A stretch of 60,231 nucleotides of DNA, the filler included. It is 7 parts of 7 records of this genome, joined end to end, with 100 filler letters (N's around TTAATTAATTAA, not from the genome) between each part and the next. Parts side by side here need not be neighbours in the genome. Positions count along the whole stretch, not along the records: positions 1 to 9,543 come from SRR31156797_6387; 6 more parts are not named here. The stretch is one strand, 5' to 3'. The notes below the pieces were generated by a model. It was not told the DNA's origin, ran no database searches, and worked only from the letters and a program-made list of their open reading frames with translations. Numbering within the stretch: position 1 is the stretch's first letter; the number at the start of each line of letters is the position of its first letter. Position numbers and translations under genes: made by a program. This document shows positions 1 through 20,050 of this stretch, in pieces.

Positions 1-168
1 ACCAAATTGACCACAAAATGCCGCATATAAGCTTACTCTTTTTCGATTTCTCTTCGTTGAAAATTTTAAACGTAGTTATGGCTATGCTATAATTTTTTGC
101 CATGATAAATCAAAAAACAATTGTTGCATCCAATGCAACATTTTATAATCAAATTGGAATTAGACAGA

Positions 169-501
169 CTATAGCTCATCTCCACATTGCCAAACCACAA
201 CAGGACGGTATTTATTCTGATCAAAATCGGCATGATCAACATCTCCATCCCAGGTAATTAAGGTCCCTTCAGCATTATAAACATGGCAATCTAAACACGA
301 CCAATGCAAACAATAGATAATGTAATAATATTTTTCATTGTAGGTCCAACGCTGAACTTTACAGCCCTCGCAAGTACCCAAATTTTTCAATTCCAACAAC
401 TCGGGAGTCATCCATACAGGTACAATAACAGGCTCTTGTTCCCGGTCCTCGCAGCCAAAAACACATATGGCCAAAAGACTTATGAGTATAAGTTTTTTCA
501 T
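169..501 (-). CDS. Small lipoprotein, unknown function, last gene of the pilus-like cluster
   Basis: Lipobox-type signal MKKLILISLLAICVFG-C; two CxxC motifs; starts 9 nt after the upstream stop. Confidence 0.7.
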   Translation of the reverse strand: MKKLILISLLAICVFGCEDREQEPVIVPVWMTPELLELKNLGTCEGCKVQRWTYNEKYYYIIYCLHWSCLDCHVYNAEGTLITWDGDVDHADFDQNKYRPVVVWQCGDEL

Positions 502-510
502 CCCATTAGG

Positions 511-1026
511 TTAATCATCATAAATAGTAAAAACAACATCCGTTTCAAAGTCCTGTGCTCCCATCGAGATAGACAAACCACTAATTCTAAACGCAATAGG
601 GATATTTGAGATAAAATCTCTTCCACGAAAAAAATACGCTGAATTATTGGTTACGGTCGTAAAAACAGTTCCATCGTGAATATTCGGTTTCTTTTTACCA
701 TTGTTCTTTTTCCCTTGTACGGTTCCGGTTCCGGTTCTTTTTACTTCCAAAACAAGATTGTTGTTCCAGCTCACATCTACCTTATTAACTTCAATTCGCC
801 ATTTCCTGTTTGGGTGTATTCTTCTGTCCCAGTAGTTTCCAGAACTTATGGAAACAAAGGTTGTGGCTTCACTTAATATGTTAGGAGAAAAATCTTCTCC
901 GGCTTCAGTAATTATAAATGATGAATTATTAAAAATTACAGATCCCTGAACATCGATTTGCATACCCTGAGCAAGCGAAAAATAACTCAAAAACACCAAA
1001 ATTATTATTATTGAAAAGTGTCTCAT
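511..1026 (-). CDS. Secreted pilin-like subunit (divergent minor/tip subunit)
   Basis: Signal peptide; TEAGED motif and C-terminal strand DVVFTIYDD match the paralogs upstream. Confidence 0.6.
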   Translation of the reverse strand: MRHFSIIIILVFLSYFSLAQGMQIDVQGSVIFNNSSFIITEAGEDFSPNILSEATTFVSISSGNYWDRRIHPNRKWRIEVNKVDVSWNNNLVLEVKRTGTGTVQGKKNNGKKKPNIHDGTVFTTVTNNSAYFFRGRDFISNIPIAFRISGLSISMGAQDFETDVVFTIYDD

Positions 1027-1028
1027 TT

Positions 1029-1595
1029 TTAATTATCACTAATTGTGTACAAAATAGTTAACTGCATTTCTCCAACTGCTCTTAATTTTGAGAAGTCTCC
1101 TAAATCCAGAGAAAAAGATAATGCATGCCCGTTGTTAATCCCATTGCCCGTAAAGCTATTCCCAATATCAAATATAATTGTTTTCGGAACTCTATCGAGT
1201 TGCACTTTTCCCTGCGATTGCCCGTGTGCTCCTAATCCGATCCCCGAAAAGACAGAAGCCTCAACACTTAGGGTAATCCCATCGGGCAAATTACCACCTG
1301 CTATCTCTGCCGCAATACTACGGGAACTTTGCCCATAAGGAAGTGCCGAGCTATAATTTATCCATAAAGTTTGAGATGAAGCTTCCTGCACCCCAGGCTC
1401 TTCCCCTGATTCTGTTGTAGGATCAAACTGAAAATTGATACTGTTATTCCCGTCAGGTTCAATATCAATTAATGCTATGGAAGGAATCCTAAGTGTAACA
1501 TCAGCATAATCGTTCTGAAACTGGGCATTTGAACGCATCCCCAAGATTACAAACATTAAAAAAATTGATACTTTTAACTGCTGACTATACTTCAT
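1029..1595 (-). CDS. Secreted pilin-like subunit
   Basis: Signal peptide; IPSIALIDIE, LWINYSS, IGNSFTG and LTILYTISDN motifs shared with 5725, 6511 and 7224 ORFs. Confidence 0.7.
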   Translation of the reverse strand: MKYSQQLKVSIFLMFVILGMRSNAQFQNDYADVTLRIPSIALIDIEPDGNNSINFQFDPTTESGEEPGVQEASSQTLWINYSSALPYGQSSRSIAAEIAGGNLPDGITLSVEASVFSGIGLGAHGQSQGKVQLDRVPKTIIFDIGNSFTGNGINNGHALSFSLDLGDFSKLRAVGEMQLTILYTISDN

Positions 1596-1602
1596 AAAAT
1601 TC

Positions 1603-4600
1603 TTATTGTACAGGTTTTATTTTGCCATTCTCGAAAATAACTACAAATGGATTCCGGTAATAGCGGCTTAATTGGGTACGTAATTTTCTGGCATCCTCAA
1701 TATTCTTAAACTTTCCAATAAAATATTTATTCAAGTTATTAGAATATCTTTCAAATTCAAACGGATAATCGCTAAAATACCTCGATTCGTTGGTCTTTTT
1801 TAGTCTGAATGCCCCGACCTGAACTGAATAAAATACTTCTTCCACACGATATTCAGTGGATTTTGTTTTCGGAATATAAGTATCGTACGACTTAACAATA
1901 AAGGGATTACGATAATTTTTACGCACTACCTTTAAATAGTCCTGGGCCTGGGCTAGTGTTTCAAATCGACCAATAAAGTATTTATAATAACCATCTTTAT
2001 AAGTCTCTTTATCAAACGGATATTTTTCAAAAAACCTTGATTCTTTGCTCTTCTTTCTTTTGAACGCACCTACCTGAATTGTATAATACAAGGCTCCACC
2101 TATTACCTCTTCAGACTTTTCATTTTCATCCTCCTCTGATACAATATTACTATTGGTCTTAGGAGTTAAAACAAAATTATTGGAACTAAAAATTATATTT
2201 CTTTTTTTCTTAATTAATTCAATTTCTAACTCTTTCTGTTCACCCGGCCCCAAATTAACACTATACTCCTTCAGCTTAACCGAAAATCCTTCAGGGATTG
2301 AATTCGGATAAATTTTAAAACGATACTTCCCGGGGCGTACTAAAGGAAAAGAAAAGTTTCCTTTGCTATCTGAAGCAATCCTAAATTGATCAAATTCATT
2401 TTTTAACTCAATAACGATATTGCTAGCATTTGCCGGATCGGCATCATTGGAAATTTTAAATCTTCCGGCCAAACGGGCACCTTTTGTGATATTAACATGT
2501 AGGGAAGTTTCCTGGTTGCCTATAATCTCAATCTGAGCTGGCAAAGGAATACTGCTTACTTCATCAATTTCGAACTTGTCGCGGTTAACAAATAACAAAT
2601 GTGTTCCGGGTTGAAGATCGGTAAAAGCAAACTCGCCGTTTTTATTTGTTATTGCCTTTCTGTTAAGAATATTAAGAATAACATTTTCGGCCGGTCGCCC
2701 ATCTTCGTATGTTATAGTACCAACTAAATCACCAGCCTGAATAACCTGTTTTAGCGGAATACCTATATTACAGGTATATGTTATTGAAGCAGATAAGTCA
2801 GGATCTTCTGTCTCTTGTTTAAATAAGGTATAAAAACTTCTCAACGAGATTTTATGATTTTTAAGAAATGTATAATCCAAACTTGTCTGCATCAGGTTCC
2901 TGTTCTGATAATAATCTTCTATGTTGTATGCATTCTGAAAATAGAACATGGCCTGAAAATTTTTCGAAAATATTGTACTTGCAGAAATCCCCCATGTTAG
3001 GTTTCGCTGATCATCAGTAATAAAACTATTAACATTCGACCAACTCCCAAAAAATTGCACAGAGTGTTTTCCTTTGTAGTGATAACCAAAATTACCCGAC
3101 ACCCTATATGTATTTTGCTGGTTTTCGATTTCACTCGACTGATAATCTGTAGTTTTACCGTATTCACCAAACAAACTATAATCGTACGATTTAAACTTGT
3201 GTGTAAACTGCGAGTTTAACGACTGGGTTTCGTAATGAAACTTTTCCGTACTTAAACGATCTTTACGTTCATATTTTCTCCAAAAGATTTTAAAATTCGC
3301 CTTACGAGCCAAACTATAATTCAGAATAGCCTGGTAGGATTTTGAATAAGGTGCTGTTACAAAAAAGGTATCCAATTGCGCGTTCTGAAAATCTTCTTTC
3401 GCGTAAAATCCAACGTTCATTTTTTTTGATAACCGGGCAGATATATTCGCAGAATAAAATTTTGAATTGCTGTAGTAGCCCGGATACTTTTCTCCTGTTA
3501 AAGAATAGTTACCTGCCAACTGAAAAATAGAGAATTGTGTATTCAAGTTCACCCTGTATGCCTTATCCCAATACCCATCGATGTGGCCACCGGAAACTTC
3601 AAATCCCACAGAAGTACTTTCAAAAGGAATTAAGTTCCCACTTAAACTCAAAAGGTGAATATAGTTGTCAGATTGGTTGGAATTTTTTGCAATATAAAAT
3701 AAATCAAGCCAGTTATCTTTGGTAAACTCAAAACCGGTATAGCCGGCAAATTCATTCTTAATTTCTTCATAAAAACGAGGCTGCACATAAATTGCTCCAA
3801 ATTTGAGTCCACTATTGGTTTTAATCCTTGTTTCTGCTCCCATACCGAAACGCGACATTTCAGTAAGTTCGGTAAACTGATAGGTTTGTTCACCAAAAGT
3901 CGCGTACAGATTGTTGTTTTGGTAAGTAATGTAATATTGATCGTATAATCCCATAAAACCCATATCCTGATTATCAGGAACTCGCGCCAAAATTTCCAGG
4001 AAATGTTTATTATCGACATCAAGATACCCACTTCCAAAAACTTCAAATTGGTAACCCGACACAGGCTCACCGGTAGTATTTGTATAAATGTACGTAGCTG
4101 AAGACTTAAGCGGGTACCTGAAAAACAGATCCTTTTTATGCTTTTCCTGGGGAAAAACGATAAATGAGTGATGAATGTTTTCATATACCTTTTCGCCCAC
4201 CACGGCTCGTACACTTAAGTATGTATTATTGGTTTCTTTAATCTCAATATTGGTTTTTGATAGTGCTGTAACTTCAACAGATTGTCCGGGTTTCACTTCC
4301 ACCTCTTCCCCCCCAACAACTTCGCAATTAACGGTCTCCAGGTATACCTTTTTAGTTGTGTTACCATTGTTTTGCACCAAAAATAAAGCTTTTACATCTT
4401 CTCCGGCAATAACATGTTTTCGGGACTGTACCATCAACATTGAAATATCTTCAAGTTCCTTTATTTGTATGATAGTTGACAATGTTCCTATCTTGTCTTT
4501 TGTATCACTTTTCCAAATATCGGCTATTATCTGAAAATCACCTACAACAGCTTTTCCTGACGACTGAATAGAGAAAAAGAGCATCTTCTTCTCTCCTGCT

Positions 4601-4845
4601 TTTAAAGATTCTTTTCGCTTATTTATAATTGCTTTCCACCCCAGCGGAACTTGTAAAACAATATCAACTTCAAAACTATTTTCAGAGGTATTTTCAATTG
4701 AAACAGGCAGATTAACCACCTCTCCGGGAAAAATTCTGATATTCTGTTTTAGAAAGCCTGCTTTTAGACCACCAGTATTCTGCCCATAAACTTTACCAAA
4801 AATTATGGATATAAATAAACCAATAAATAACAGGTTTTTAAGCAT
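1603..4845 (-). CDS. Large outer-membrane usher-like protein: N-terminal Ig-like domains, beta-barrel-like core, CnaB/carboxypeptidase-like domains, two C-terminal SPOR domains
   Basis: 1080 aa with signal peptide; aromatic-rich alternating strands; YYTIQVGAF and FYSVQVGAF SPOR signatures, each with YFIGxF and NPFxV. Confidence 0.65.
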   Translation of the reverse strand: MLKNLLFIGLFISIIFGKVYGQNTGGLKAGFLKQNIRIFPGEVVNLPVSIENTSENSFEVDIVLQVPLGWKAIINKRKESLKAGEKKMLFFSIQSSGKAVVGDFQIIADIWKSDTKDKIGTLSTIIQIKELEDISMLMVQSRKHVIAGEDVKALFLVQNNGNTTKKVYLETVNCEVVGGEEVEVKPGQSVEVTALSKTNIEIKETNNTYLSVRAVVGEKVYENIHHSFIVFPQEKHKKDLFFRYPLKSSATYIYTNTTGEPVSGYQFEVFGSGYLDVDNKHFLEILARVPDNQDMGFMGLYDQYYITYQNNNLYATFGEQTYQFTELTEMSRFGMGAETRIKTNSGLKFGAIYVQPRFYEEIKNEFAGYTGFEFTKDNWLDLFYIAKNSNQSDNYIHLLSLSGNLIPFESTSVGFEVSGGHIDGYWDKAYRVNLNTQFSIFQLAGNYSLTGEKYPGYYSNSKFYSANISARLSKKMNVGFYAKEDFQNAQLDTFFVTAPYSKSYQAILNYSLARKANFKIFWRKYERKDRLSTEKFHYETQSLNSQFTHKFKSYDYSLFGEYGKTTDYQSSEIENQQNTYRVSGNFGYHYKGKHSVQFFGSWSNVNSFITDDQRNLTWGISASTIFSKNFQAMFYFQNAYNIEDYYQNRNLMQTSLDYTFLKNHKISLRSFYTLFKQETEDPDLSASITYTCNIGIPLKQVIQAGDLVGTITYEDGRPAENVILNILNRKAITNKNGEFAFTDLQPGTHLLFVNRDKFEIDEVSSIPLPAQIEIIGNQETSLHVNITKGARLAGRFKISNDADPANASNIVIELKNEFDQFRIASDSKGNFSFPLVRPGKYRFKIYPNSIPEGFSVKLKEYSVNLGPGEQKELEIELIKKKRNIIFSSNNFVLTPKTNSNIVSEEDENEKSEEVIGGALYYTIQVGAFKRKKSKESRFFEKYPFDKETYKDGYYKYFIGRFETLAQAQDYLKVVRKNYRNPFIVKSYDTYIPKTKSTEYRVEEVFYSVQVGAFRLKKTNESRYFSDYPFEFERYSNNLNKYFIGKFKNIEDARKLRTQLSRYYRNPFVVIFENGKIKPVQ

Positions 4846-5648
4846 TAGCTAAGCTCAAATGACACATTGGTCCCAAAAATATTATCGCCACCACAATCGG
4901 CAACCAAAACCCCGGAATAAGTTCCTGGCTTAATCCCTTCCAGTCTTATATTTACAAGTATTGATGTTCCGGGTAGAGTTTTCCTGGGGTCTGCAACTAA
5001 AGTACCAACAGAGTTCCCATTACCGTCAAAAAGCTCAATTGACATAGCAGGTTTTAGAAGGCGTTCTCCAACATTTTCAAGAATCACCTGCACAACCGAT
5101 GTCTCTGCATCTCTTGCCAACTGAAGTCCCAGAAAATTCAAATTACTTACTCCTGTATTTTCAATATTTGAAATGACCTGTATAGCATAACGCAAAGCGG
5201 TGTTAATAGACACTCCTGCTCTCTGGGTAGTGTCGGGGGGAACTACACCTTCAACCATTAGCACGCTCCAATACGTTCCGATAAGGACGTCCTTATCTGG
5301 AACTTTAATTTCTACATTTATGGTTGTTTTTTCATTAGGAGCCAGGTTAATCAGGTCAGAAGGAAATGAAATCCAGTGAGCATTTGATCGATCTAATGTA
5401 CCTGGTTCATCATGTCGCGATTCTCCTTTATAGTTATACCAGTAATCTTTTAAATAAATCCTAACCGACTTTTCAACATCAGTAACATTCTGAAGCTCTA
5501 TTTGCGTTCGATAAGTCTCTCCTTTTTGAATGGTATTTTCGTGTGTTAGGCCATTTAAAATTACAATGCTGGCCGACGAATTAAAAGTCGTAAAAAGAAT
5601 AATTACAATTAACACGAACAAAGCGTTGAATGGAATATTGCGTTTCAT
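4845..5648 (-). CDS. Periplasmic pilus chaperone-like protein (two Ig-like domains)
   Basis: Signal peptide, 267 aa; WISFPSDLINLAPNE, YWSVLMVEG and RYAIQV resemble PapD/EcpB/DUF916-like chaperones; stop overlaps next start. Confidence 0.6.
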   Translation of the reverse strand: MKRNIPFNALFVLIVIILFTTFNSSASIVILNGLTHENTIQKGETYRTQIELQNVTDVEKSVRIYLKDYWYNYKGESRHDEPGTLDRSNAHWISFPSDLINLAPNEKTTINVEIKVPDKDVLIGTYWSVLMVEGVVPPDTTQRAGVSINTALRYAIQVISNIENTGVSNLNFLGLQLARDAETSVVQVILENVGERLLKPAMSIELFDGNGNSVGTLVADPRKTLPGTSILVNIRLEGIKPGTYSGVLVADCGGDNIFGTNVSFELS

Positions 5649-5724
5649 ATCTGATGATCATTTATTATGGAAATCCAGCCCATAAAATTATTAATCTTTT
5701 CAGATTTTACAAGATCACCCGGGC

Positions 5725-6291
5725 TTAATCGGTTAAAGTATATACAACATTAAAAGTAATTTCTTCTTCTTTCAGGTCAGCAAAGCTCAACACAGCCTCA
5801 TCCACCTCCAGGTTGTAAATCAAATTATGACCGTTGCTTACTCCAACTCCGGTGTAACAACTTCCAATCTCTGAAATAATCTCTGTTGCCTGGGTAGTAA
5901 GCAAGGTAGTTCCAACAGGTTCTCCCAATCTTCCTTTTCCCGATCCCTGAGCTGGCATGGCAGTAACAATCAGGTTTAATCCATCACGTACTTCACCTTC
6001 GATAAAAGCAGTAACTGTTCTTGTGTGCTGCTGGTAACGTTTGATGGATGAATAATTTAACCAGATTGAATTATTGGTTTGTTCTCCCTGAAAAACTAAA
6101 TTACTACCCGCTTCCTGGTTCGAGAAGGGCTTAAAATTGATACTGTTGGGATTGTCACTTGATAAAGACAACACTGCAATTTCCTTAATTTCTATAATCA
6201 CCTGGTGACTTGCAGTATTATTTTGAGAATAAACCACTCTTGAACAAACAAGAAATATTAGTATTAATCCTATTTTTATTCGGTGGTGCAT
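5725..6291 (-). CDS. Secreted pilin-like subunit
   Basis: Signal peptide; IWLNYSS, IGSCYTG, NVVYTLTD motifs. Confidence 0.7.
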   Translation of the reverse strand: MHHRIKIGLILIFLVCSRVVYSQNNTASHQVIIEIKEIAVLSLSSDNPNSINFKPFSNQEAGSNLVFQGEQTNNSIWLNYSSIKRYQQHTRTVTAFIEGEVRDGLNLIVTAMPAQGSGKGRLGEPVGTTLLTTQATEIISEIGSCYTGVGVSNGHNLIYNLEVDEAVLSFADLKEEEITFNVVYTLTD

Positions 6292-6510
6292 CCTCTACAA
6301 GTTATGAATATTAAGTTTAAAACAAAACTATTTGATAATGAGGATGTATTCAAAGTCCAAGTGCTGAACATAAGCTTTTAGAATACTGATTTTTATTCAG
6401 CAAATTTCACCATATGTGGTAATTTTAGATGAAAACATTTGAAGGTAATTGATTTGAAGAATATCCTTTTTTACAGAAATGCCCCTTTCCTTGTCCAAGA
6501 ATTAATATCA

Positions 6511-7068
6511 CTACCGATCAAACAGAGTATAGGTAATCGTTACAGAAGCACTGAACTCTGATAACCGATCAAAACGCCGCTCGTTGAACGTAAGATAATA
6601 GGTTAATTGGCTTCCTTCACCTACACCATTATTTGTATAGCAGCTTTCAATTCTATTGATTACATTTCGCGGAGTGGTTCGAAGCCGTAGGGGACGGTTT
6701 CGTGCATCACCAACATTCCCTTCCCCTGTTGGCTCAGCAACTGTTAACCATAACCTTAGTCCCTGAGGTAAAGCAGTATTATCCATTTGTACTGAAATAC
6801 TCCTTCTATTTACAGAGCCAGGTAAAATTGATGTATAGTTTAACCATAAACTATTGTCACTAGCCCCTGAAAAGTCAAGAGGATCTCCAGCCTCGCCACT
6901 AAACGACGGTGATAATGTTATTGAGTTCCCACCTGGACCTTCAACATCCAGGATAGCCACTTCCGGGATCGAGATATTTGCACTATGCGATAGATTGCTT
7001 ATATCCTGAGCAAAAGAAAGCCTTACAATAATCTGAACTAAGAATAATATTGTAATTAATTTTTTCAC
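6511..7068 (-). CDS. Secreted pilin-like subunit
   Basis: GTG start; IPEVAILDVE, LWLNYTS, ESCYT, VTITYTLFDR motifs. Confidence 0.7.
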   Translation of the reverse strand: MKKLITILFLVQIIVRLSFAQDISNLSHSANISIPEVAILDVEGPGGNSITLSPSFSGEAGDPLDFSGASDNSLWLNYTSILPGSVNRRSISVQMDNTALPQGLRLWLTVAEPTGEGNVGDARNRPLRLRTTPRNVINRIESCYTNNGVGEGSQLTYYLTFNERRFDRLSEFSASVTITYTLFDR

Positions 7069-7149
7069 TATTTGTGTTTAAATTAAACACCTTATAAATT
7101 TATACAAAACAAATACTTATGCTCGCAGAAGATGAATAATGGTTAATAC

Positions 7150-7194
7150 AAAAAAAACAAAGAAAAGCAGACTACCTTACAGGGTAGTCATGCT
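7150..7194 (-). terminator. Intrinsic terminator/attenuator after the first pilin gene
   Basis: Stem GACTACC/GGTAGTC extended by AGCA/TGCT, followed on the minus strand by a T-rich tract. Confidence 0.65.
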
Positions 7195-7223
7195 AAGTAT
7201 CTTTCGAATCAAGTAACTGATTT

Positions 7224-7784
7224 CTAGTTATCAGAAATTGTATAAGTAATTGTAAGATCTGTACTGGTTTCGGTTAGGTTGGCAAATGAACCAGAAGTTT
7301 CAGATAATGAATAGGTTAAATTACTTCCTTCACCATGTCCATCATTTGTATAACAACTTCCTATACTGGAAATAACCGTTTGACTTGTTGTCGATGATAA
7401 GGTAATTGCAGAGCCGGCAGAACCCAATGTTCCAACACCAGTTGGCCCAGCAGCAAGAAGATTTACCTCCAAACCTGTTGGAACAGTTCCGGTTGTAATT
7501 TGTACAGATATCGTACGACTTGCATCAGAAGCTGAAGTTACAGATGTGTAATTCAACCATAGATCGCTGTTTGTAGCTCCGGTATAATTTAAACCTTCAC
7601 CTGCCTCAGTTGGAGCAGTTGCAGTCAAACTAATATTTTCACCTGTCGCAGGTCCCTCAATATCTACTATAGCGACCTCAGGAATACCAACAGTTACAGT
7701 ATGAGTAGCCACTTCTGAATCCTGTGCGTTAGTTACTCCAAAAACTAATAAACTAATTGCTAATAATAATAATAACTTTTTCAT
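7224..7784 (-). CDS. Probable major pilin-like subunit
   Basis: First gene of the cluster; Ser/Thr/Gly-rich; IPEVAIVDIE, LWLNYTS, IGSCYT, LTITYTISDN motifs. Confidence 0.7.
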   Translation of the reverse strand: MKKLLLLLAISLLVFGVTNAQDSEVATHTVTVGIPEVAIVDIEGPATGENISLTATAPTEAGEGLNYTGATNSDLWLNYTSVTSASDASRTISVQITTGTVPTGLEVNLLAAGPTGVGTLGSAGSAITLSSTTSQTVISSIGSCYTNDGHGEGSNLTYSLSETSGSFANLTETSTDLTITYTISDN

Positions 7785-7870
7785 GATGTTTGTGTTTTAT
7801 AAATGTTTGTAAATAAATAATTCTTCAAAAAGCTGTTGTATCCTCTTAGGGATGGATACACTCTATGTTT

Positions 7871-7887
7871 AGCAAGTCGCATGCCAA
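7871..7887 (-). promoter_or_regulatory. sigma54 (RpoN) -24/-12 promoter
   Basis: Minus strand TTGGCATGCGACTTGCT, exact GG-N10-GC spacing, about 87 nt upstream of the start codon. Confidence 0.7.
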
Positions 7888-7942
7888 ACGACTTATCTTT
7901 CTCACATTCAACACATAACAACTTTTTCAACATTTCAACACC

Positions 7943-7979
7943 TGCACCATTTCGGGACACAACTACCCGAATACGGACA
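7943..7979. promoter_or_regulatory. Putative tandem enhancer (UAS) sites for a sigma54 activator
   Basis: Imperfect palindromes TGCACCATTTCGGGACA and TACCCGAATACGGACA about two helical turns apart, upstream of the sigma54 site. Confidence 0.45.
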
Positions 7980-8336
7980 CTTCCCCAAATTGAACCTGTT
8001 TTTTTCAGGCTTATTTGCACAATCTTCTTACAAGTTGGTATGTATATATATATCTTCATATTGAGCCAATATCTGCATTACATTAATTACACAGAATTAA
8101 CTGTTTGCACAATTCCTTTATGTCAAAAATAAATCCAGATAAATTTGCCTTGGTATTAAAGCTCGTTCATTCTTTAACATAAGGCCATGATAAAACAAAC
8201 GTCCATTTAATGTTTCATCTCCCAATTTTGAAGTCGGTTCAAAAATAGAATAAACATCCAATTTAACAATATTTACCAAACATGTTTTATAACACATTTT
8301 GCAAATTATTTATAAAAAGTTATTAAGAGTGCCGGA

Positions 8337-8912
8337 TTATCTTCCTGAGCTCATATAATTTGAGGCAAGTTCCAGCTCTTTGTACCACTCCTCCCCGTAT
8401 TTTCTAATCAGTGGTTCTTTTAAAAATTTAAACAATGGTAGTTTTTCTGAGTTGCCACATTCCCGACCAGGCTTACAGATGTCCAGTTCCTGGTAATTTA
8501 ACGCATCAAAGCGTTTGTACTCAGTTATCCGGATAGGAAAAAGATGACATGAAATAGGTTTGCGGAGTTTCGTTTTTCCACTAAAATATGCTTTCTCTAT
8601 GGCACATTTTAGTATTCCCTGATTGTTATAATATGAATACGCACATTGCCGGTTATTTATAAGCGGTGTCACTAAATCACCATCACTATCAATGAGCGAG
8701 TAACCTTGTTTTTCAACTTCTCTTTTGTGATTTTCAGGAAGCAGATTCTCAAATTCCGGGTATTCTTCTTCAATCAAGACGGCTTCTTCATCGGTGAGAG
8801 GTGCTCCTGAATCACCTTCAATACAACACGCTCCTTTACATTTTAGAATATCACAAAGAAAGTGTTTTTCAAAAACATCATCACTTATTAATGTTCTTCC
8901 GATTTCAACCAC
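8337..8912 (-). CDS. DUF3109 family Cys-rich protein
   Basis: FLCDILKCKGACCIEGDSGAPL, CAIEKAY and KPISCHLFPIR motifs typical of this Bacteroidota family. Confidence 0.85.
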   Translation of the reverse strand: MVEIGRTLISDDVFEKHFLCDILKCKGACCIEGDSGAPLTDEEAVLIEEEYPEFENLLPENHKREVEKQGYSLIDSDGDLVTPLINNRQCAYSYYNNQGILKCAIEKAYFSGKTKLRKPISCHLFPIRITEYKRFDALNYQELDICKPGRECGNSEKLPLFKFLKEPLIRKYGEEWYKELELASNYMSSGR

Positions 8913-8928
8913 AGCGTAAAAACAAAAG

Positions 8929-8990
8929 TGTCATCTCTTACATAATGAGAGATCCGTTACAACAGATTCCTCATTATGTTCGGAATGACA
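8929..8990. repeat. Degenerate palindromic (REP/MITE-like) intergenic element
   Basis: TGTCAT..CATAATGAG..GATC and GATTCCTCATTATGTTCGGAATGACA arms are mutually complementary. Confidence 0.55.
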
Positions 8991-9005
8991 CATTACAATC
9001 AAAAA

Positions 9006-9543
9006 TTATTTAATCAAGTTCTTCCCTGTCATTTCGGAAGGAACTACTAATCCCATTACATTTAACAAGGTTGGCGCCACGTCGGCCAGAATACCGTTCT
9101 CCAGTTTTATACCTTCTTTCTCTGAAACGAAGATGCAAGGAACGGGATTTAATGAGTGAGCTGTATTTTCTGATCCATCCTCGTTAACTGCATTATCGGC
9201 GTTACCGTGATCAGCAATTATCATTACATCGTAACCTCCCTTTTGAGCTGCAGTAACCACTTTCTCCACACAGCTATCCACAGTCTGTACCGCCTTGTAC
9301 ACAGCATCATAAACCCCGGTATGACCTACCATATCGCCATTGGCAAAATTCAAACAAACAAAGTCTGCTTCACCTTTTTCCAATTTCGGGACAATCGCTT
9401 CAGTAACCTCAGGAGCTGACATTTCTGGTTGATGATCGTATGTGGGCACTTTAGGAGAAGGTATCAAAATACGACTTTCACCTTCAAATTCAGCTTCTTG
9501 TCCACCACTAAAGAAGAAAGTAACATGCGCATATTTTTCTGTT
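9006..9543 (-). CDS. gpmI: 2,3-bisphosphoglycerate-independent phosphoglycerate mutase, 3' part (contig edge)
   Basis: EKYAHVTFFF, PSPKVPTYD, NFANGDMVGHTG, ADHGNAD, TAHSLNPVP. Confidence 0.95.
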
Positions 9544-9643
9544 NNNNNNNNNNNNNNNNNNNNNNNNNNNNNNNNNNNNNNNNNNNNTTAATTAATTAAN
9601 NNNNNNNNNNNNNNNNNNNNNNNNNNNNNNNNNNNNNNNNNNN
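9544..9643. other. Artificial contig linker
   Basis: N-run + TTAATTAATTAA + N-run; composition and taxon change across it. Confidence 0.98.
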
Positions 9644-10060
9644 ATAGAACCTTTGGCCCGTTATTTTCTCAACAGAAAAGCCCGGGAAATTGGCCGCCGC
9701 CACCTGCCGGAAATTTTACCTGGATCTTTCAGCCGCCTGCAGCAGTACGATTGGCCGGGGAATGTCAGGGAACTGGAGCACGCGGTTGAAAGGGCCCTGA
9801 TTCTAAACCAGGGCGGCCCGCTCATGTTTGACGAATTTAAAATAGCCGGGGCCGGCGACCGCCTCAATAACTTTCATGGCGATGAAAATAAAAACCGCAC
9901 TATCAATGAAGTAGTCGCCGGTCACATCAGGAATGTTCTTGAATCAACGGGCGGCCGGGTGGAAGGAAAAAACGGCGCCGCCGTAATTCTGGGATTAAAT
10001 CCCAGCACCCTGCGCTATAGGATGAGAAAGCTGGGCGTTCCCTATGGCCGCAAGGCCTGA
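9644..10060 (+). CDS. sigma54-dependent Fis-family activator, C-terminal part
   Basis: YDWPGNVRELEHAVERA; C-terminal HTH GAAVILGLNPSTLRYRMRKLG. Confidence 0.9.
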   Translation: MEPLARYFLNRKAREIGRRHLPEILPGSFSRLQQYDWPGNVRELEHAVERALILNQGGPLMFDEFKIAGAGDRLNNFHGDENKNRTINEVVAGHIRNVLESTGGRVEGKNGAAVILGLNPSTLRYRMRKLGVPYGRKA

Positions 10061-10079
10061 ATCCCGGCATAATAAATCA

Positions 10080-10099
10080 GGGGGCCATTGGCGGCCCCC
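10080..10099. terminator. GC hairpin between convergent genes
   Basis: GGGGGCC-ATTGGC-GGCCCCC. Confidence 0.55.
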
Positions 10100-10119
10100 G
10101 AAATGTTAATTAAAAAGGA

Positions 10120-10743
10120 TTATAAAATCAGGTCCTTTAATCCTCCGGGCGCAAGCCCGACATCCGAACCGGATTCCAGAATGGCTTCAGCCATGGCTTG
10201 TCCATAACCCCGGGAAAATGAAAAGAAAATCATTGCCGACTTTCCTTCCCTCGAAAACAGAACCGACTGGGCCGGGATGTGCATGACCGGGCCCTGGATC
10301 AGGCAAGGACCGGTCAATCCCGGAGCGGAAAAATCCAGACTAGAGATGCGATCCATCACATCCAGGGCGCCTGGTCCGCTGACCGCCATAAGGCAAAGTC
10401 CGTCCGTTGTCTCTGTATATTCCTTTTCCTCGGGAGGATTGACCATTCCCGGGTCTATGTTCCATATGGCGCACTGGGTTCGATTCATCCTGTTTATCAG
10501 GATGCCGTTTTCATAAACGCATTGGCCCGGCGATTCGGGAATTTCAATCCCCCAGGGTTTAAAGCGCCCCAAGTCGGAATCCTGCAGATCGTATTTCAGG
10601 CAATGGCTCAGGTCGATAAGCCGGGGCCCCTCTTCCTGTTCGCCGTATTGTAGGGCGGCTTCGAATCCATTAATCGTTTCGGTTTCGACCGGCTTTAGTC
10701 CGAAATCCACCGGAGACCGACGAATTATATTTTCACCTGTCAT
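10120..10743 (-). CDS. soxG: Sarcosine oxidase-type subunit gamma
   Basis: GcvT-like fragment (LIDLSH, SFSRGYGQAM); last gene of a BDAG operon. Confidence 0.75.
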   Translation of the reverse strand: MTGENIIRRSPVDFGLKPVETETINGFEAALQYGEQEEGPRLIDLSHCLKYDLQDSDLGRFKPWGIEIPESPGQCVYENGILINRMNRTQCAIWNIDPGMVNPPEEKEYTETTDGLCLMAVSGPGALDVMDRISSLDFSAPGLTGPCLIQGPVMHIPAQSVLFSREGKSAMIFFSFSRGYGQAMAEAILESGSDVGLAPGGLKDLIL

Positions 10744-10747
10744 TTTA

Positions 10748-13672
10748 TTAACTCCTCAACCGCTCGCCTTCAGGGTCGTAAAAAGGCATGGGCGTTACAG
10801 CGGCTTCAAACCGTAGAGGTTCATTGGAATCGTTCTGGTAGATGTTCAACCGGCCTTCCGGTTTGGCCAGCCTTTCCCTGACCAGGGCCATGCCGATGGT
10901 TTTGCCCAGTGTCGTCGACTTTCTGCACGTGCAGACAAAACCCAGTATGGTATCGCCTTCGTAGACAACCGATCCGTCGCCCGGAACCGATTCCGTATTC
11001 TTCATTTCAAATCCGACAAGCTTAAACCGGCCTTCCTGTTCCCTGGTAAATTCCAGGGCCGGGCCGCCGATTTTACCGCTTGTTTTATCTTTTTTGTCCC
11101 ACAAAAAGCCCATGCCCAGGTCCAGCAGGTTGACCCGCTGCTCGCTTTCCTGGCCGATAATTATATGTCCTTTTTCCAGGCGGAGAACGGATTGGGCTTC
11201 CAACCCGAACGGCTGTATCCCGAAATCCTTGCCCGCTTCCAGCAGCATGTTCCAGACAGCCGATCCATACGAAGCCTGGAAGTGGAGCTCATACGACAAT
11301 TCGCCCACAAAACCCACGCGCAGCGCCCGGACCGGGACCTCGCCCTTGAGCTTTAATTCCCTGTAGCCCATGTAAGGAAAGGCTTCATTGGATATATCCG
11401 CGTCCGTAAGGCGCGATAGAACGTCTCTGGCCTTGGGGCCGGCAAGATTAATCGCGGCCAGGGAATCGGTAAGGTTGATCATGTGAAAGTCCCAGCCGTC
11501 ATACCTGCCGTGATACCGGAACCACTCAATTGTTCCTCCGGCCCGGCCCGTGGACGCGGTGAAATAATAATCGTTTTCACCAACCCGGGCGACCACTCCG
11601 TCGTCAACAATCATGCCGTCGTGGTTCAGCATGGCCGAATACTTGAGCTTGTCTTCGGTCATGCGGCTCATGTTGGAAATGTAGCATCTTTGCAGGGCCT
11701 TGAGCGCATCCGGTCCGTGGATGCGGAACTTGCCCAGGGTGGACACGTCTATTAGGCCGACATTGGTTCTCACGGCCTTGATTTCGTCGGCGCTGGAAAA
11801 ATCCCTGGAAAAATAACGGGCGCGTTTCCAGACGCCGACCCGCCTGAACACCGCATTTGTTTTTTCCTGCTCGCCGTGAATGGGAGTGCGTTTGTAAATG
11901 TCATGTCCGGGACCGACCAGCGTTGCCATTAATGTCGGCGTGATCGGAGACCTGCTGGTTGTCGGGAGCATGGTTTCCGGGCTTTCTCCCTTGATTTCGG
12001 CCAGGACAAGAGGCAGGTTATGACCGGGAACACCGGCCTGGCCCGGCCCCAGTCCGAATCCTCCGAACCGCTTGGCCAGCTCAGGAACGTCAAAGGCCTG
12101 ATCAACCGATTGCGCGGCGGTCTTGTACGTGCCGTCTTCGTCAAAGCAGATGAATGATTTTCCGCCCTTGCCGATTCCCGGGCCGTGGACGATTTTACAG
12201 CCCGCTTTTATTCCGGCCGTATTGGACAGCCTGATTTCCGCGCTTTTGATATCAACCTGCCTGCCGGAATCGGCCGCGGCTTTCAATCCGGCCAGAGCGC
12301 CGGAAGCTTCGATAGCTTCGGGGGCGGAATATCCCAGCATACGCCCGGCGGCGTGCACTCGAGGCGGCATTTCCTTGGGCATGTACCAGCCGGTATGTTC
12401 GTCAAAAGCAAACTTTGCGTTTAGCGAAGCCAGGGCGCCGGCCAGCGGGGTCAATCCCGCCGATGCAACCAACAGGTCGCAGGCAAAGCTGCTGGTGGAA
12501 CCGGACTGATCCCCGAGAACCGCTCCTTCGACCCATTTCTTGCCTTCAGCCCTGGAAGCGGCCCAGCCCGGCAGGAAGGCAATGCCGGCATCCTGAATTT
12601 TTTCCAGGAGCAGCCGGTCATGCCCGTCTTTTCTGGCATCAGCCACTGCCAGAACATTTACGCCTGCAGCGGTTAAATCCAGGGCCGCTTCCAAACCCAG
12701 GTCGTCGCCCACGCTGAATACGGCTTTCTTCCCCGGCGACACCGCCCAGGTCCGGGCCAGCCTCAGCGCACAGCCGGCCTGCATTACACCCGGCCGCTCA
12801 TTGTTTTCAAAAATAAGCGGCCTTTCAATGCAGCCGGCGGCGACAATCACGCTGGTCGGCCTGACCTGGATGTAGCGTTGAACAAAGGAATCGTTTTCAT
12901 TTCCGACCTGGATCGCCGTTACCAGGTTGTCGCCGTTTGTATAATTGACCGGCGTATGGGTGAACACCCGAATATTTTCATGGTTCAAGACTTGGTCAGC
13001 CAGCTCATTGCATCTTTTATAAAGAGGCCGGCCTTCGTTGTCCGGTCTGTGCCGCCAGTCGTAAAAGCCTCCCAGCCAGGGGCGGGCTTCAAACAGTATG
13101 ACCCTTAAATCCTGGTCAGCGGCATTGAGCGCCGCGGCCATGCCGGCCGGGCCTCCGCCGATGACGCAGACTTCGGCATTGGGATAATATTCGGGAAAAT
13201 CTTCTGTCCTGTAAACCTTGTCCGGATCCACCACCCCGGTTCCGGCCATGTCGCGTATCCGTTTGACGGCCATGGGCCAGATAGCCGCGGGTTTGTGGAA
13301 CCTGCGATAGTAAAAGCCGGCCGGCATGAAATAATCCATTTTATCAATAAAGCCGAAACGGTCTTTTTCCACCGAGCCTGAAAAATTCTGGGCTGTGACG
13401 CGCATGCCTTCCCTGAGCAAAGTCAGTTCGGCCTGAACATTGGCTTCCCCGTCCACGTTGACGAGGGTGTTGCCGGATTCACCGTCAAGGCTGTAAAGCC
13501 CCCTGGGGCGATGATACTTGAGGCTGCGGCCGATTATCTTTTCAGATCCCGCGTGAAGGGCCGAAGCGATGGTGTCGCCGGCCAGACCTTTCATGGGTTT
13601 GCCGTTCCAGGTGAAATTGATCTTCCGTTCCCGATCGATCTTTTCCATGGGTGTTTTAGGGAGTCTGCTCAT
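10748..13672 (-). CDS. soxA: Sarcosine oxidase-type subunit alpha
   Basis: GDTIASAL, RSLKYHRPRG, GGGPAG Rossmann motif, C-terminal aminomethyltransferase domain (DVSTLGK, FVGELSYEL, LRLEKGH). Confidence 0.9.
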   Translation of the reverse strand: MSRLPKTPMEKIDRERKINFTWNGKPMKGLAGDTIASALHAGSEKIIGRSLKYHRPRGLYSLDGESGNTLVNVDGEANVQAELTLLREGMRVTAQNFSGSVEKDRFGFIDKMDYFMPAGFYYRRFHKPAAIWPMAVKRIRDMAGTGVVDPDKVYRTEDFPEYYPNAEVCVIGGGPAGMAAALNAADQDLRVILFEARPWLGGFYDWRHRPDNEGRPLYKRCNELADQVLNHENIRVFTHTPVNYTNGDNLVTAIQVGNENDSFVQRYIQVRPTSVIVAAGCIERPLIFENNERPGVMQAGCALRLARTWAVSPGKKAVFSVGDDLGLEAALDLTAAGVNVLAVADARKDGHDRLLLEKIQDAGIAFLPGWAASRAEGKKWVEGAVLGDQSGSTSSFACDLLVASAGLTPLAGALASLNAKFAFDEHTGWYMPKEMPPRVHAAGRMLGYSAPEAIEASGALAGLKAAADSGRQVDIKSAEIRLSNTAGIKAGCKIVHGPGIGKGGKSFICFDEDGTYKTAAQSVDQAFDVPELAKRFGGFGLGPGQAGVPGHNLPLVLAEIKGESPETMLPTTSRSPITPTLMATLVGPGHDIYKRTPIHGEQEKTNAVFRRVGVWKRARYFSRDFSSADEIKAVRTNVGLIDVSTLGKFRIHGPDALKALQRCYISNMSRMTEDKLKYSAMLNHDGMIVDDGVVARVGENDYYFTASTGRAGGTIEWFRYHGRYDGWDFHMINLTDSLAAINLAGPKARDVLSRLTDADISNEAFPYMGYRELKLKGEVPVRALRVGFVGELSYELHFQASYGSAVWNMLLEAGKDFGIQPFGLEAQSVLRLEKGHIIIGQESEQRVNLLDLGMGFLWDKKDKTSGKIGGPALEFTREQEGRFKLVGFEMKNTESVPGDGSVVYEGDTILGFVCTCRKSTTLGKTIGMALVRERLAKPEGRLNIYQNDSNEPLRFEAAVTPMPFYDPEGERLRS

Positions 13673-15960: not shown

Positions 15961-16060
15961 NNNNNNNNNNNNNNNNNNNNNNNNNNNNNNNNNNNNNNNN
16001 NNNNTTAATTAATTAANNNNNNNNNNNNNNNNNNNNNNNNNNNNNNNNNNNNNNNNNNNN
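15961..16060. other. Artificial contig linker
   Basis: N-run with TTAATTAATTAA. Confidence 0.98.
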
Positions 16061-17476: not shown

Positions 17477-20050
17477 GTGAAATTATTTAAAACCCTCATA
17501 TTGTCATTTTGCATATTTATTGCAGCACATGCGTATGTCTGGAATGTTCCGGATAGCGTATTAACCATTCAATCCGCTATTGATACGGCCGCCAGCGGCG
17601 ATACCGTTATGGTAAAAAATCCGTTCCAAAACGATGGCTCTATCGAGATCATCAATAAACAGATCGCCCTGTTATCAAAATCATATATCAATAATCCCTC
17701 CGCCTATACCATTGCCTCGGGCGCCGCAATTTATAACTCGGATAATACTGTCCCCCTCGTCAAGATCAATAACGCGGGTGGGTCTGAGATCCGGGGTTTT
17801 CTTTTTGATGATAATGATTTGCGAAGTGGGGGTGGAATAATAATTGAAGGTTCTGATAATATCATCATTGACGGTGTTCATTTTCAAGGCAATTCTCTTG
17901 TTGTAGACAACGCTTCGCTTGAGATAAACAATGCAGCATTTTACAGTAATGATACTGCAGATTATTCACTTATTTCCATTATTAACGGCAGTGTCGATAT
18001 GTCAAATACCCAATGGAGAGACTCCGAAGTAGCCAGTTTATTGGTTATGGGGGCTGAATCTGAATTTCGCGCAGAGAACCTTGCGGTCTATAATAATGAT
18101 TGTACAAATGATATGTATATTATTGGTTCAACATCAGCTGACTTTAACTATTTCACGTCATACGGCAATACAACATCGGCTTCGGCCTGGACATTAAACT
18201 CCACCTGGTTAAATATCTCAAATTCTGTTCTTGAAAATGCGCCACCTGTAGATATCTCTCAATGCGAGATCACCTACTCTGCAGTCCCGGGTTCTTATCC
18301 GGGCACAGGGAATATTTCCGAATATGCCGAAGTTGACACTAGCGGCTCTTATCCCGCATTACTTGAGACCTCGCCCTGTATTTCTGCGGCCAACCCCGAT
18401 ACAACCGAGATTCCAAGAACAGATATTCTCGGCAATGCACGTCCAAATCCGGAATGGGCACCACCCGATATGGGCGCCTATGAATCAGAACGACATATGT
18501 TGTTAAATGATGATACCCGACTTTGGATAAGTAAAACCGGCCACGACATCTGGGGTAATGGAAGTGACGAATATCCTTTCGCCTCTATTCAGGCCGCTAT
18601 CGATTACGCTCTTGAAGCGGATACCCTTTTACTTCTCCCGGGAACCTACGCAAGCAATGTTTTGATTGAGGGTAAATCTTTAACCATTGCTTCAGAATTT
18701 ATTCTCAACCAGAATGGAGCTTATAAAGATTCTGTTATTCTTGTTCCGGATACATCAATAGCTGATCCCATACTCCTTGTGCGCAATACCGATTCTCTGC
18801 TTATTTCCGGCATGACGCTACGTGAAGGGCGGGGACGACAATTCTATAATAATTATTCTTTTGGCGGGGCGATCTATTGTGAAGATTCGGGCTTAAGGCT
18901 GGAGTATTCGGACCTCGAAGAAAACACATCCGAATATAGCGGCGGTGCTTTGTATGCTCTTAATTCTGAAGTGTTTGCATCAGAGGTTCGCTTTATGGAT
19001 AACCTTTCATATCTTGGTGGAGCAATTTCACTTTCGGCCAGCACGGGATATTTCGCCAATGTAACAATTCGTGACAACATTGCTTCCTCCGGTGGAGGCA
19101 TTTATCTTGAAGACGAATCAATGCTGATCGCTTATTATGCAGAGATCTCGGAAAATTTTGCAAATAACGACTCTCTGGATGATGGCTTTGCAAAACCTGC
19201 TGCTATTTCGCAATATGGTGCAGGAATCTATGCGGTTGGCTCTCATCTTCGTTTACATAATTCGCTGATCTCAGCTAATCGCTCTGTAAATCAAGGGGCC
19301 GCGCTTGCATTAAAATCGGGGGCTCTCTATCTATTGCAATCGACTATTGTCGATAATTATTCTTCCGCAGATTCCACAGCTTCAATCTATCTTGACCAAC
19401 TTTCGGAAGATGCTCTTATTGTTAATTCTATTCTTTATGATCAAAACGAAGACGAGTTGATATTGAAAGATAGTGACCTATTGACAGATCATTCATTTAT
19501 CTCGGGTGGTGAAGATGGGATCATTCACATTGGTTCTGAAAATATCGTTATATTCGATTCTGTATTGACCGGAGATCCGGACCTGGATGAAGATTACAAT
19601 TTAACGCTCGGATCTCAATGTTTGAATGCCGGTTTGTCATCTTTCCTTCTTGATGACGAGTATCTAATTAATTACGATGAATCCGAATATGACGGAACGG
19701 CTCCCGACCTTGGACATAATGGCGCTTATCCGGAAATTCCCTTTTTAATTGAGCCGGTTGAATCATCCATCGAAACTGTTCCGGAAAGTTATGAACTGCT
19801 GAAAGCCTATCCCAACCCCTTTAATCCGATATGCACTATTGAATTTAATCTGGATACTCCGGGTAAAACGAATTTAAGTGTTTTTGATATTAGCGGCCGA
19901 CGCGTTTCAACGCTCGTAGACCGGGATATGTCCAATGGAAATTATAAGCTTGTATTTAATGCTCATTCATTGCCATCCGGCATATATATCGCTAGATTAA
20001 CACAGAAAAGTAAGGTTCTTTCAACAAGTAAACTTTGTCTGGTGAAATAG
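17477..20050 (+). CDS. Secreted beta-helix/Pmp-repeat protein with C-terminal YPNPFNP sorting-type domain
   Basis: Signal peptide; TIQSAID and SIQAAID; GGAI repeats; SPCI..PDMGAYE; C-terminal AYPNPFNP..LPSGIY. Confidence 0.8.
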   Translation: MKLFKTLILSFCIFIAAHAYVWNVPDSVLTIQSAIDTAASGDTVMVKNPFQNDGSIEIINKQIALLSKSYINNPSAYTIASGAAIYNSDNTVPLVKINNAGGSEIRGFLFDDNDLRSGGGIIIEGSDNIIIDGVHFQGNSLVVDNASLEINNAAFYSNDTADYSLISIINGSVDMSNTQWRDSEVASLLVMGAESEFRAENLAVYNNDCTNDMYIIGSTSADFNYFTSYGNTTSASAWTLNSTWLNISNSVLENAPPVDISQCEITYSAVPGSYPGTGNISEYAEVDTSGSYPALLETSPCISAANPDTTEIPRTDILGNARPNPEWAPPDMGAYESERHMLLNDDTRLWISKTGHDIWGNGSDEYPFASIQAAIDYALEADTLLLLPGTYASNVLIEGKSLTIASEFILNQNGAYKDSVILVPDTSIADPILLVRNTDSLLISGMTLREGRGRQFYNNYSFGGAIYCEDSGLRLEYSDLEENTSEYSGGALYALNSEVFASEVRFMDNLSYLGGAISLSASTGYFANVTIRDNIASSGGGIYLEDESMLIAYYAEISENFANNDSLDDGFAKPAAISQYGAGIYAVGSHLRLHNSLISANRSVNQGAALALKSGALYLLQSTIVDNYSSADSTASIYLDQLSEDALIVNSILYDQNEDELILKDSDLLTDHSFISGGEDGIIHIGSENIVIFDSVLTGDPDLDEDYNLTLGSQCLNAGLSSFLLDDEYLINYDESEYDGTAPDLGHNGAYPEIPFLIEPVESSIETVPESYELLKAYPNPFNPICTIEFNLDTPGKTNLSVFDISGRRVSTLVDRDMSNGNYKLVFNAHSLPSGIYIARLTQKSKVLSTSKLCLVK

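Follow-up and report, generated by a model that had tools for sequence, protein, structure and literature searches.

We analyzed a window of 60,231 nucleotides, meaning the whole stretch of DNA under study, in which eight consecutive genes identified by open reading frame (ORF) listing on the minus strand (positions 122-7784) appear to encode the components and the assembly machinery of a fibre (Table 1). The reading that we favor, at a probability of about 70%, is that the fibre is formed by donor-strand exchange (DSE) and is built by a periplasmic chaperone of the WxLIP type together with an usher-like outer-membrane protein, using four classes of subunit, one of which would be a tip without a donor strand. 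The basis of this reading is wholly computational. An earlier note, made from the sequence alone, had described five secreted proteins of 171-188 amino acids (aa) flanking a two-Ig (immunoglobulin) chaperone-like gene and a 1080-aa barrel-like protein, and had interpreted them as a DSE fibre. The ORFs, signal peptides and alignment confirmed this inventory, and the interpretation itself was supported in silico by the subunit folds, by a three-copy complex model and by the barrel of the large protein.

The subunits were first compared by alignment, in which the other four paralogues are 44, 34, 30 and 19% identical to the first subunit. In the four more similar paralogues, the motifs that had been noted were recovered as IPE.A..D, LW(L/I)NY.S and (G/E)SCYT, the last being replaced by G-N-S-F-T in the product of the gene at 1029-1595, and the alternating C-terminal strand, ending in T-(I/L)-x-D, is common to all five. 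This likeness is not due to chance, because the subunits have many database relatives (201 for the first subunit at E ≤ 1e-3) and their gene order recurs in 49 of 50 related loci with sufficient flanking sequence. Signal-peptide-like N-termini are present on all eight proteins of the locus, with a lipobox on the 110-aa lipoprotein alone; where the signal peptide is cleaved, the subunits carry no conserved cysteine, in agreement with the earlier note, which saw no lipobox on them. The first subunit has a signal peptide to A20↓Q21, an extension at residues 21-35 with the pattern H28-x-V-x-V-x-I-P35, and the C-terminal end DLTITYTISDN. Among 199 sequences of the subunit (S) class, H28 is present in 134 and P35 in 175, and positions 30, 32 and 34 are hydrophobic in 192, 193 and 197, respectively, with polar residues between them; the C-terminal strand alternates likewise in the same sequences.

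An AlphaFold2 model of the monomer, calculated from a 62-sequence alignment (mean predicted local distance difference test score, pLDDT, of 92.4), contains a beta-sandwich at residues 37-186, and residues 21-36 are without secondary structure and of lower confidence. The nearest folds are the class 5 pilins CfaB, CS17 and CooA, together with EcpA, Csu and other donor-strand pilins; the comparison with CfaB, EcpA and CsuA/B proposed in the earlier note thus returned exactly these among the nearest structural matches. The subunits matched no Pfam, NCBIfam or PHROG family (NCBIfam gave sub-threshold 'choice-of-anchor' matches only), and neither the subunit sequence nor its profile found anything meaningful among the sequences of solved structures.

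The contact between subunits was modelled with ESMFold2 using three copies of the mature first subunit without the family alignment. This subunit-subunit model, of a kind called for in the earlier note, showed head-to-tail strand insertion with a median interaction prediction score from aligned errors (ipSAE) of 0.73 (0.73, 0.70 and 0.79), compared to 0.00 for the best of three controls. The runs agreed in at least 93% of contacts, with a partner pLDDT of at least 86. In the calibration of the method, the mark that this model passed was reached by 21 of 30 proteins solved as pairs of one chain, and none of 23 proteins solved as single chains reached it. Residues 21-37 of one copy contact residues 167-184 and 38-42 of the next, and the contact pairs of lowest error (28-179, 30-177, 32-177, 34-172 and 36-172) place the extension in antiparallel register against the C-terminal strand. 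The modelled subunit contact is of DSE topology, as described for chaperone-usher pili and for ElrD of Enterococcus. The earlier note had drawn attention to the C-terminal strand; in the model this strand lines the acceptor groove, and the donor is the N-terminal strand, at residues ~26-35. The in silico result was therefore an incomplete Ig-like fold into which the following subunit inserts its N-terminal strand, rather than the complete Ig fold without a groove that had been named beforehand as a refuting outcome, as had the absence of a barrel from the large protein, which likewise was not what the models gave.

These results bear on the alternative that there is no polymer. The small proteins would then make up a static complex of the envelope or surface, with the two-domain protein holding it, and the large protein would be a porin or uptake channel whose SPOR domains bind peptidoglycan. 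We consider this quite unlikely, since the three-copy model inserts strands head-to-tail (0.73 versus 0.00 in the controls), and since the conserved amphipathic extension, unstructured in the monomer, is absent from one conserved paralogue, as expected of an ordered polymer. A static-complex model was itself proposed earlier for the WxL gene clusters of Gram-positive bacteria, and was replaced with a DSE pilus by cryo-EM, according to a preprint of October 2026 (10.64898/2026.10.17.759780).

The 267-aa protein had been described as the product of a two-Ig chaperone-like gene. The two domains were recovered by Pfam and hhalign, although the protein is not PapD-like and falls instead with the DUF916/DUF3324 family. 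Its match to WxLIP_PGBD (PF06030) is sub-threshold (22.0 versus 27.3 bits), and it has no match to PF11797; at E ≤ 0.01, PF06030 was found in 12 and PF11797 in 3 of 42 family members, one of which passes the PF06030 cut-off. Profile alignment by hhalign against six Gram-positive/actinobacterial DUF916/DUF3324 proteins gave 96.5% (E 7.5e-10, 214 columns) across both domains, and alignment against a single Enterococcus mundtii WxLIP protein, which scores 124 and 168 bits with the two Pfam models, gave 83.6%. When the member that passes the cut-off was compared to plasmids by tblastn, Enterococcus accounted for 12 of the 20 hits; these 12 are weak and cover 59-76% of the query, and 10 of them fall on genes annotated 'DUF916 and DUF3324'. 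PapD families gave no match for the window protein (E ≤ 1) and none among the 42 members (E ≤ 0.01), and the chaperone profile found nothing meaningful among the sequences of solved structures. These profile comparisons identify the 267-aa protein as a soluble member of the same homologous family as the DUF916 (WxLIP_PGBD)/DUF3324 (WxLIP_HBD) chaperones. It ends with the second domain (…NVSFELS) and has no C-terminal membrane anchor; the alignment stops at about residues 278-290 of the 352-aa Enterococcus protein, ahead of the membrane helix of the latter.

The function of this chaperone family is indicated by the Elr pilus of E. faecalis. According to the preprint, ElrD (a WxL pilin, like ElrC) polymerises by DSE, and ElrE, a membrane-anchored DUF916/DUF3324 chaperone, primes ElrD through donor-strand complementation (10.64898/2026.10.17.759780). 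The most conserved stretch of the window protein family, residues 124-157 (G-T-Y-W-S-V-(I/L)-M-V-E-G ... I-N-T-A-(I/L)-R-Y-A-(I/V)-Q), aligns with the Gram-positive region containing a long hairpin, which is predicted to insert into WxL (PMC10599100). Residues 124-157 are a candidate donor hairpin.

The 1080-aa protein, which had been described as barrel-like, was modelled by AlphaFold2 from 81 sequences with a mean pLDDT of 86.5, and a barrel was confirmed in the model. That the protein forms a large barrel, of about 24-26 strands, is well supported by this prediction. Foldseek ranked FimD first (3rfz_E, E 4.2e-13, 789 columns) and PapC second (7lhh_C, 1.8e-11), with the PapC pore alone (6.1e-8) and LptD (~3e-7) below; Ig-domain arrays such as SpyCEP are matched as well, on account of the domains that flank the barrel. 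Ushers align collinearly across the N-terminal domain, the barrel and both C-terminal domains in Foldseek and VIA-align, and in these models it is this collinear multi-domain architecture that carries the likeness specifically to ushers. The first Ig domain of the protein is also related to domain 1 of the chaperone-like protein (89.5%, E 2e-6). The even number of strands implies that both termini lie on one side, consistent with a periplasmic position of the two SPOR domains, which are domains that bind peptidoglycan. Strand amphipathicity was not discriminating, as a face difference above 2 was found in 14 of 26 barrel strands and in 13 of 20 Ig strands. A Pfam scan of the protein at E ≤ 1 listed 11 families, with no Usher, PapC_N or PapC_C among them, and its profile found no usher among the sequences of the PDB at E ≤ 1, the matches being Ig-like and CarboxypepD_reg domains only.

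Within the barrel region, residues 484-503 carry a near-invariant motif (N488, D492, T493 and P499; consensus D-x-x-N-x-x-x-D-T-L-x-x-x-A-P-x-S). It coincides with the only low-confidence loop or helix of that region (pLDDT below 50 at residues 489-495), and in the model this loop may be a gating or substrate-contact element.

Ushers were the top matches of the large protein in both Foldseek and VIA-align, collinear through all domains, and we considered whether the locus truly belongs to the classical chaperone-usher (CU) superfamily as a highly diverged representative, in which the barrel shares an ancestor with FimD/PapC, the subunits share one with the alternate/archaic CU pilins, and the chaperone alone was replaced or diverged. 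The closeness of the subunits to the class 5 (CfaB/CS17/CooA), EcpA and Csu pilins agrees with this view, as does the presence of SCPU (0.89) among the nearest Pfam-bearing ESM-atlas clusters. The gene order also matches that of the fim operon, namely major subunit, subunit, chaperone, usher, minor subunits and tip. Membership of the classical CU family as such was rejected on the grounds that none of the defining Pfam families matches, and we regard the divergent-member explanation as unlikely.

To assess the conservation of the cluster, one genome per species was scanned, yielding 187 genes for relatives of the 267-aa protein; the 80 best loci among them were retained, and their ORFs were scored with profiles of the three families (S, subunit; C, chaperone-like; L, large). 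Fifty loci had enough flank, defined as at least 2.6 kb ahead of the chaperone-like gene and at least 5.2 kb behind it. Of these 50, 49 show the order S(1-4)-C-L-S-T, the remaining one being without T, the divergent fifth paralogue; in the full set, a T orthologue lies directly behind the last S in 64 of 80 loci. The synteny survey suggested in the earlier note thus revealed a conserved cluster, and a link to csgEFG, which was to be looked for at the same time, was not seen among the Pfam-scanned ORFs of at least 150-180 aa, which sit on other contigs.

The S proteins fall into classes that follow their position. In a tree of 199 S ORFs, each 150 aa or longer, from which T was excluded, the conserved D class, encoded behind the large-protein gene, formed a clade of 66/66 with a support of 0.99. 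Of the U1 class, a conserved group of orthologues encoded directly upstream of the chaperone-like gene, 58 of 72 sequences lie inside one clade of 63, and of the remaining upstream copies (Ux) 56 of 61 lie inside one clade of 60. In phmmer comparisons, the D-class subunit of the window had a median score of 144.9 bits against D proteins and 67-83 against other positions, and the U1 subunit 125.6 bits against U1 proteins and 77-79 against other positions. The proposed composition of one major and four minor subunits was thereby recast as four positional classes, comprising two Ux copies, U1, D and a T subunit without a donor strand. The first-gene Ux subunit is the candidate for the major subunit.

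By hhalign, the T protein is a homologue of S (94.4%, E 9.3e-8, 162 columns), and it retains a pilin-like core together with the C-terminal strand (DVVFTIYDD). Its mature N-terminus begins at the first core strand, and about 15 alignment gaps fall at the S extension. Lacking the N-terminal extension, T could act as strand acceptor but not as donor, and it is probably the distal tip or cap. No longer, adhesin-fused relatives of T were found among 501 candidates, which is weak evidence. An adhesin domain was not seen on T, and the role of the fibre may therefore lie in matrix, aggregation or surface attachment rather than in lectin-type adhesion.

This layout argues against another explanation, in which the locus specifies a TasA/TapA-like or cannula-like matrix fibre whose subunits fold by themselves and donate strands to each other outside the cell, the two-domain protein being a nucleator or anchor and the barrel a pore for monomers. 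Such a fibre appears very unlikely here, as the chaperone-like gene is strictly linked to the usher-like barrel gene and the four positional classes, one of them without a donor strand, form an ordered, chaperone-fed layout. In addition, the chaperone-like protein is homologous to a chaperone that primes its subunits through donor-strand complementation, according to the Elr preprint. The preprint also describes TasA/TLP fibres, archaeal bundling pili and CanA cannulae as having no dedicated fold-completing chaperone and no usher (10.64898/2026.10.17.759780), whereas chaperone-like and usher-like proteins are both strictly conserved at the loci studied here.

Under the reading of a DSE fibre built by a WxLIP-type chaperone and an usher-like protein, assembly would proceed as follows. 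The subunits would be exported by Sec, and the chaperone-like protein would cap the groove of each one in the periplasm, probably via the invariant INTA(I/L)RYA(I/V)Q hairpin. It would then hand the subunits over at the barrel protein's periplasmic domains and be displaced there by the N-terminal strand of the subunit that follows, and the fibre would thread outward through the barrel, which the SPOR domains would tether to peptidoglycan. The T subunit, having no donor strand, would enter first and so come to lie at the distal tip. The first-gene Ux class would be the main repeating subunit, with D and U1 acting as adaptor, base or terminator subunits.

Several points weigh against this reading. 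The calibration counts for the three-copy model hold only roughly here, because the calibration used two copies and our model three. ESMFold2 may also have passed by recalling donor-strand pilins of solved structure. Between the extension and the C-terminal strand, covariation was only weak, with no clean register (pair 34-185 at rank 11, pair 32-177 at rank 27) in a mean-field direct-coupling analysis (DCA) of 305 sequences (Meff 243) with gap and signal-peptide artefacts corrected. For the large protein, 18-strand Occ porins equal the ushers in Z score (~15.5), with a root-mean-square deviation of 8-9 over 270-290 aligned residues. A plug of the usher type is not apparent in its secondary-structure string, in which no plug-sized insertion was seen, and the Pfam Usher and PapD families are without a match at E ≤ 1. 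Finally, the chaperone alone links the system to the Elr pili, the subunits having no sequence-profile link to WxL.

We compared the locus to known fibre systems. [quoted passage not shown] In contrast to the Gram-positive system, the host is diderm, as judged from relatives, the chaperone is without a C-terminal membrane helix, and an usher-like barrel is strictly linked. There is also no LPxTG anchor protein and no large tip adhesin; the combination of LPxTG, hydrophobic tail and basic end was found on none of the eight proteins of the locus. The WxL domain PF13731 was found in 0 of 3 carrier genomes (E ≤ 10) and in 0 of 62 family members (E ≤ 1), and hhalign of the subunits against six WxL proteins gave 0.6%. 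A WxL cluster lies near the subunit in the ESM atlas (0.91, 160 shared features), which we treat as a lead only. According to the preprint, the Elr pilus has no usher or secretion pore, and WxL pili were found in Bacillota only, in a survey that applied Pfam gathering thresholds to 4,698 genera (10.64898/2026.10.17.759780). The window proteins score below the thresholds used in that survey.

With the classical, alternate and archaic CU pili (Fim, Pap, CFA/I-class 5, Ecp and Csu), the locus shares Sec-exported, incomplete pilin-like subunits, a two-domain periplasmic chaperone and a large outer-membrane barrel that is flanked on either side by periplasmic beta-sandwich domains. It differs from the CU ushers in the ~26 strands of the barrel, the absence of an evident plug, the CarboxypepD_reg-type C-terminal domains and the added SPOR domains, and from the CU pili in the family of its chaperone and in the phyla involved, Bacteroidota and Deinococcota. 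Type V pili (FimA/Mfa1) are fibres of Bacteroidota that are also made by strand exchange between beta-sandwich subunits, and these subunits are lipoprotein precursors that a protease matures and that are not known to require a chaperone or usher. The locus differs in having no lipobox on its subunits, no FimA/Mfa Pfam match (E ≤ 1), and both a chaperone-like and a barrel protein; a type V pilus was rejected on the first two counts. An identity as type IX secretion system (T9SS) cargo was rejected as well, no Por_Secre_tail match being found on any protein of the locus.

Taken together, the locus looks like a diderm counterpart of the WxL pili with an usher-like pore, and on the most likely reading it links two pilus pathways previously thought separate, from families that have been without annotation. 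DSE pili with dedicated chaperones have long been a hallmark of CU systems of the Proteobacteria type, and in Bacteroidota the type V pili are, to our knowledge, the only ones characterised. A literature search, mostly of listings and abstracts, returned no description of such a system for Bacteroidota or Deinococcus, and the name 'DUF4402', the label of one source for a relative, was not met in the literature searched. A second chaperone family, DUF916/DUF3324, was reported in October 2026 to play this part in Gram-positive bacteria. A homologue of that family is now seen in diderm phyla, strictly coupled to an usher-like barrel and to pilin-like subunits outside the reach of all Pfam and NCBIfam models. 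We put forward only tentatively the broader possibility that this is a third lineage of the CU type, combining a chaperone of the WxL/Elr family with an usher-like pore in diderms, that it is ancestral to the Gram-positive WxL pili through loss of the usher and gain of a chaperone anchor, and that Bacteroidota would here have their first donor-strand pilus that depends on a chaperone. Should the fibre prove real, it would be a new surface organelle for Bacteroidota and a test case for the remodelling of pilus machinery across the monoderm/diderm divide, and it would provide names for three large families so far labelled hypothetical, with ~200+ subunit or chaperone clusters and ~1,700 barrel clusters. 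Relatives were found in the cultured genera Draconibacterium, Mariniphaga and Maribellus.

The 267-aa protein has 234 database relatives in a search at E ≤ 1e-3, and the 1080-aa protein has relatives in 1743 representative clusters, most of them ~900 aa long and without the SPOR tail. The chaperone-like protein is encoded in 28 of 401 genomes that sample the phylum evenly. The 80 loci belong mainly to Draconibacterium, Mariniphaga, Maribellus and Tangfeifania, together with Saprospiraceae and a small number of other groups, and relatives occur, by source names, in Chryseobacterium and Elizabethkingia too. Judged from its protein relatives, the host of the locus is probably a member of Bacteroidota near Prolixibacteraceae. 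In seven neighbourhoods taken from weaker survey matches, the chaperone-like gene adjoins a gene of the L family in five. Two divergent loci, L090 (G138) and L088 (G030), have the L-family gene upstream of, or ~1 kb from, the chaperone-like gene, and no subunit was detected there by the S profile used; their arrangement suggests further, more remote subfamilies of the system.

Outside the phylum, tblastn found the chaperone-like gene on five Deinococcus plasmids. Plasmid 2 of D. deserti, a megaplasmid (NC_012529.1, locus L081, positions 8393-12780), carries S, C and L genes in the same order, with homology to the window families supported by hhalign for S (94.3%) and L (99.1% over 752 columns) and by tblastn for C (E 9e-30). 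The chaperone-like gene of D. deserti is annotated as a 'FimB/Mfa2 family fimbrial subunit', its PF08842 score being borderline (21.7 bits against a cut-off of 21.2); this label is probably a mis-annotation.

Table 1. Genes and other features of the putative fibre locus, and domain layout of the 1080-aa protein.
Feature	Position	Strand	Remarks
Variable 'Ux'-class subunit, position U3	7224..7784	minus	186 aa; ORF and alignment; first gene of the operon
Terminator-like hairpin followed by T-run	7170..7189	minus	35 nt past the stop of the first subunit gene
'Ux'-class subunit, position U2	6511..7068	minus	185 aa; second copy of the variable class
'U1'-class subunit	5725..6291	minus	188 aa; always directly upstream of the chaperone-like gene
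Two-domain chaperone-like protein, periplasmic	4845..5648	minus	267 aa; signal peptide
Usher-like outer-membrane protein	1603..4845	minus	1080 aa; signal peptide
'D'-class subunit	1029..1595	minus	188 aa; always right behind the large-protein gene
'T'-class subunit	511..1026	minus	171 aa; divergent fifth paralogue
Small cysteine-rich lipoprotein	169..501	minus	110 aa; lipobox VFG↓C; accessory gene at the operon's end; without family
Terminator-like hairpin with T-run	122..140	minus	Behind the lipoprotein gene
1080-aa protein: Ig-like domains	residues ~28-128, 134-231		AlphaFold2
1080-aa protein: 26 long antiparallel strands	residues 241-700		AlphaFold2, DSSP
1080-aa protein: CarboxypepD_reg-type beta-sandwiches	residues 705-798, 811-879		
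1080-aa protein: disordered linker	residues 887-915		
1080-aa protein: two SPOR domains	residues 919-987, 1005-1078		

The window consists of seven contigs joined by spacers of the form N-run/TTAATTAATTAA/N-run, the first of which lies at 9544-9643. The linker recurs at 16005, 21927, 27704, 43955 and 49684, giving six matches compared to 0.01 expected, and the G+C content shifts at the joins (36%, 54-58%, 42%, 61%, 44-49%, 37% and 38-44%). Only positions 1-9543, with a G+C content of about 36%, are physically linked to the pilus locus; the other blocks are on separate contigs and are therefore unusable as its context. Genes for flagellar FlhA/MotA (61% G+C) and for sarcosine oxidase lie on other blocks, of 54-61% G+C, and the bin looks compositionally mixed. 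Gene fragments at 9006-9467 and 9653-10060 are truncations at contig ends. On another contig, positions 17477-20050 of the plus strand encode an 857-aa protein with a C-terminal sorting domain of the T9SS (Por_Secre_tail, E 2.3e-10), and this domain indicates that at least one further contig of the bin derives from Bacteroidota.

Within the locus itself, the stop of the 267-aa gene overlaps the start of the 1080-aa gene. An orthologue of the lipoprotein gene lies directly behind T in 16 of the 80 related loci. The hairpin behind the lipoprotein gene is the probable end of the operon, and the one behind the first subunit gene is a possible attenuator that would lift the transcript of the major subunit over the downstream genes; the terminator scan overall gave 9 terminator-like sites compared to 5.1 ± 2.3 in shuffles, a weak indication. 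The promoter scan showed no excess (30 sites versus 28.2 ± 5.5 expected), and a clear promoter was not seen on inspection of 7785-8340 by eye. About 55-75 nt upstream of the start codon of the first subunit, at 7838-7860 on the minus strand, lies an inverted repeat, GTATCC-N10-GGATAC, which may be an operator.

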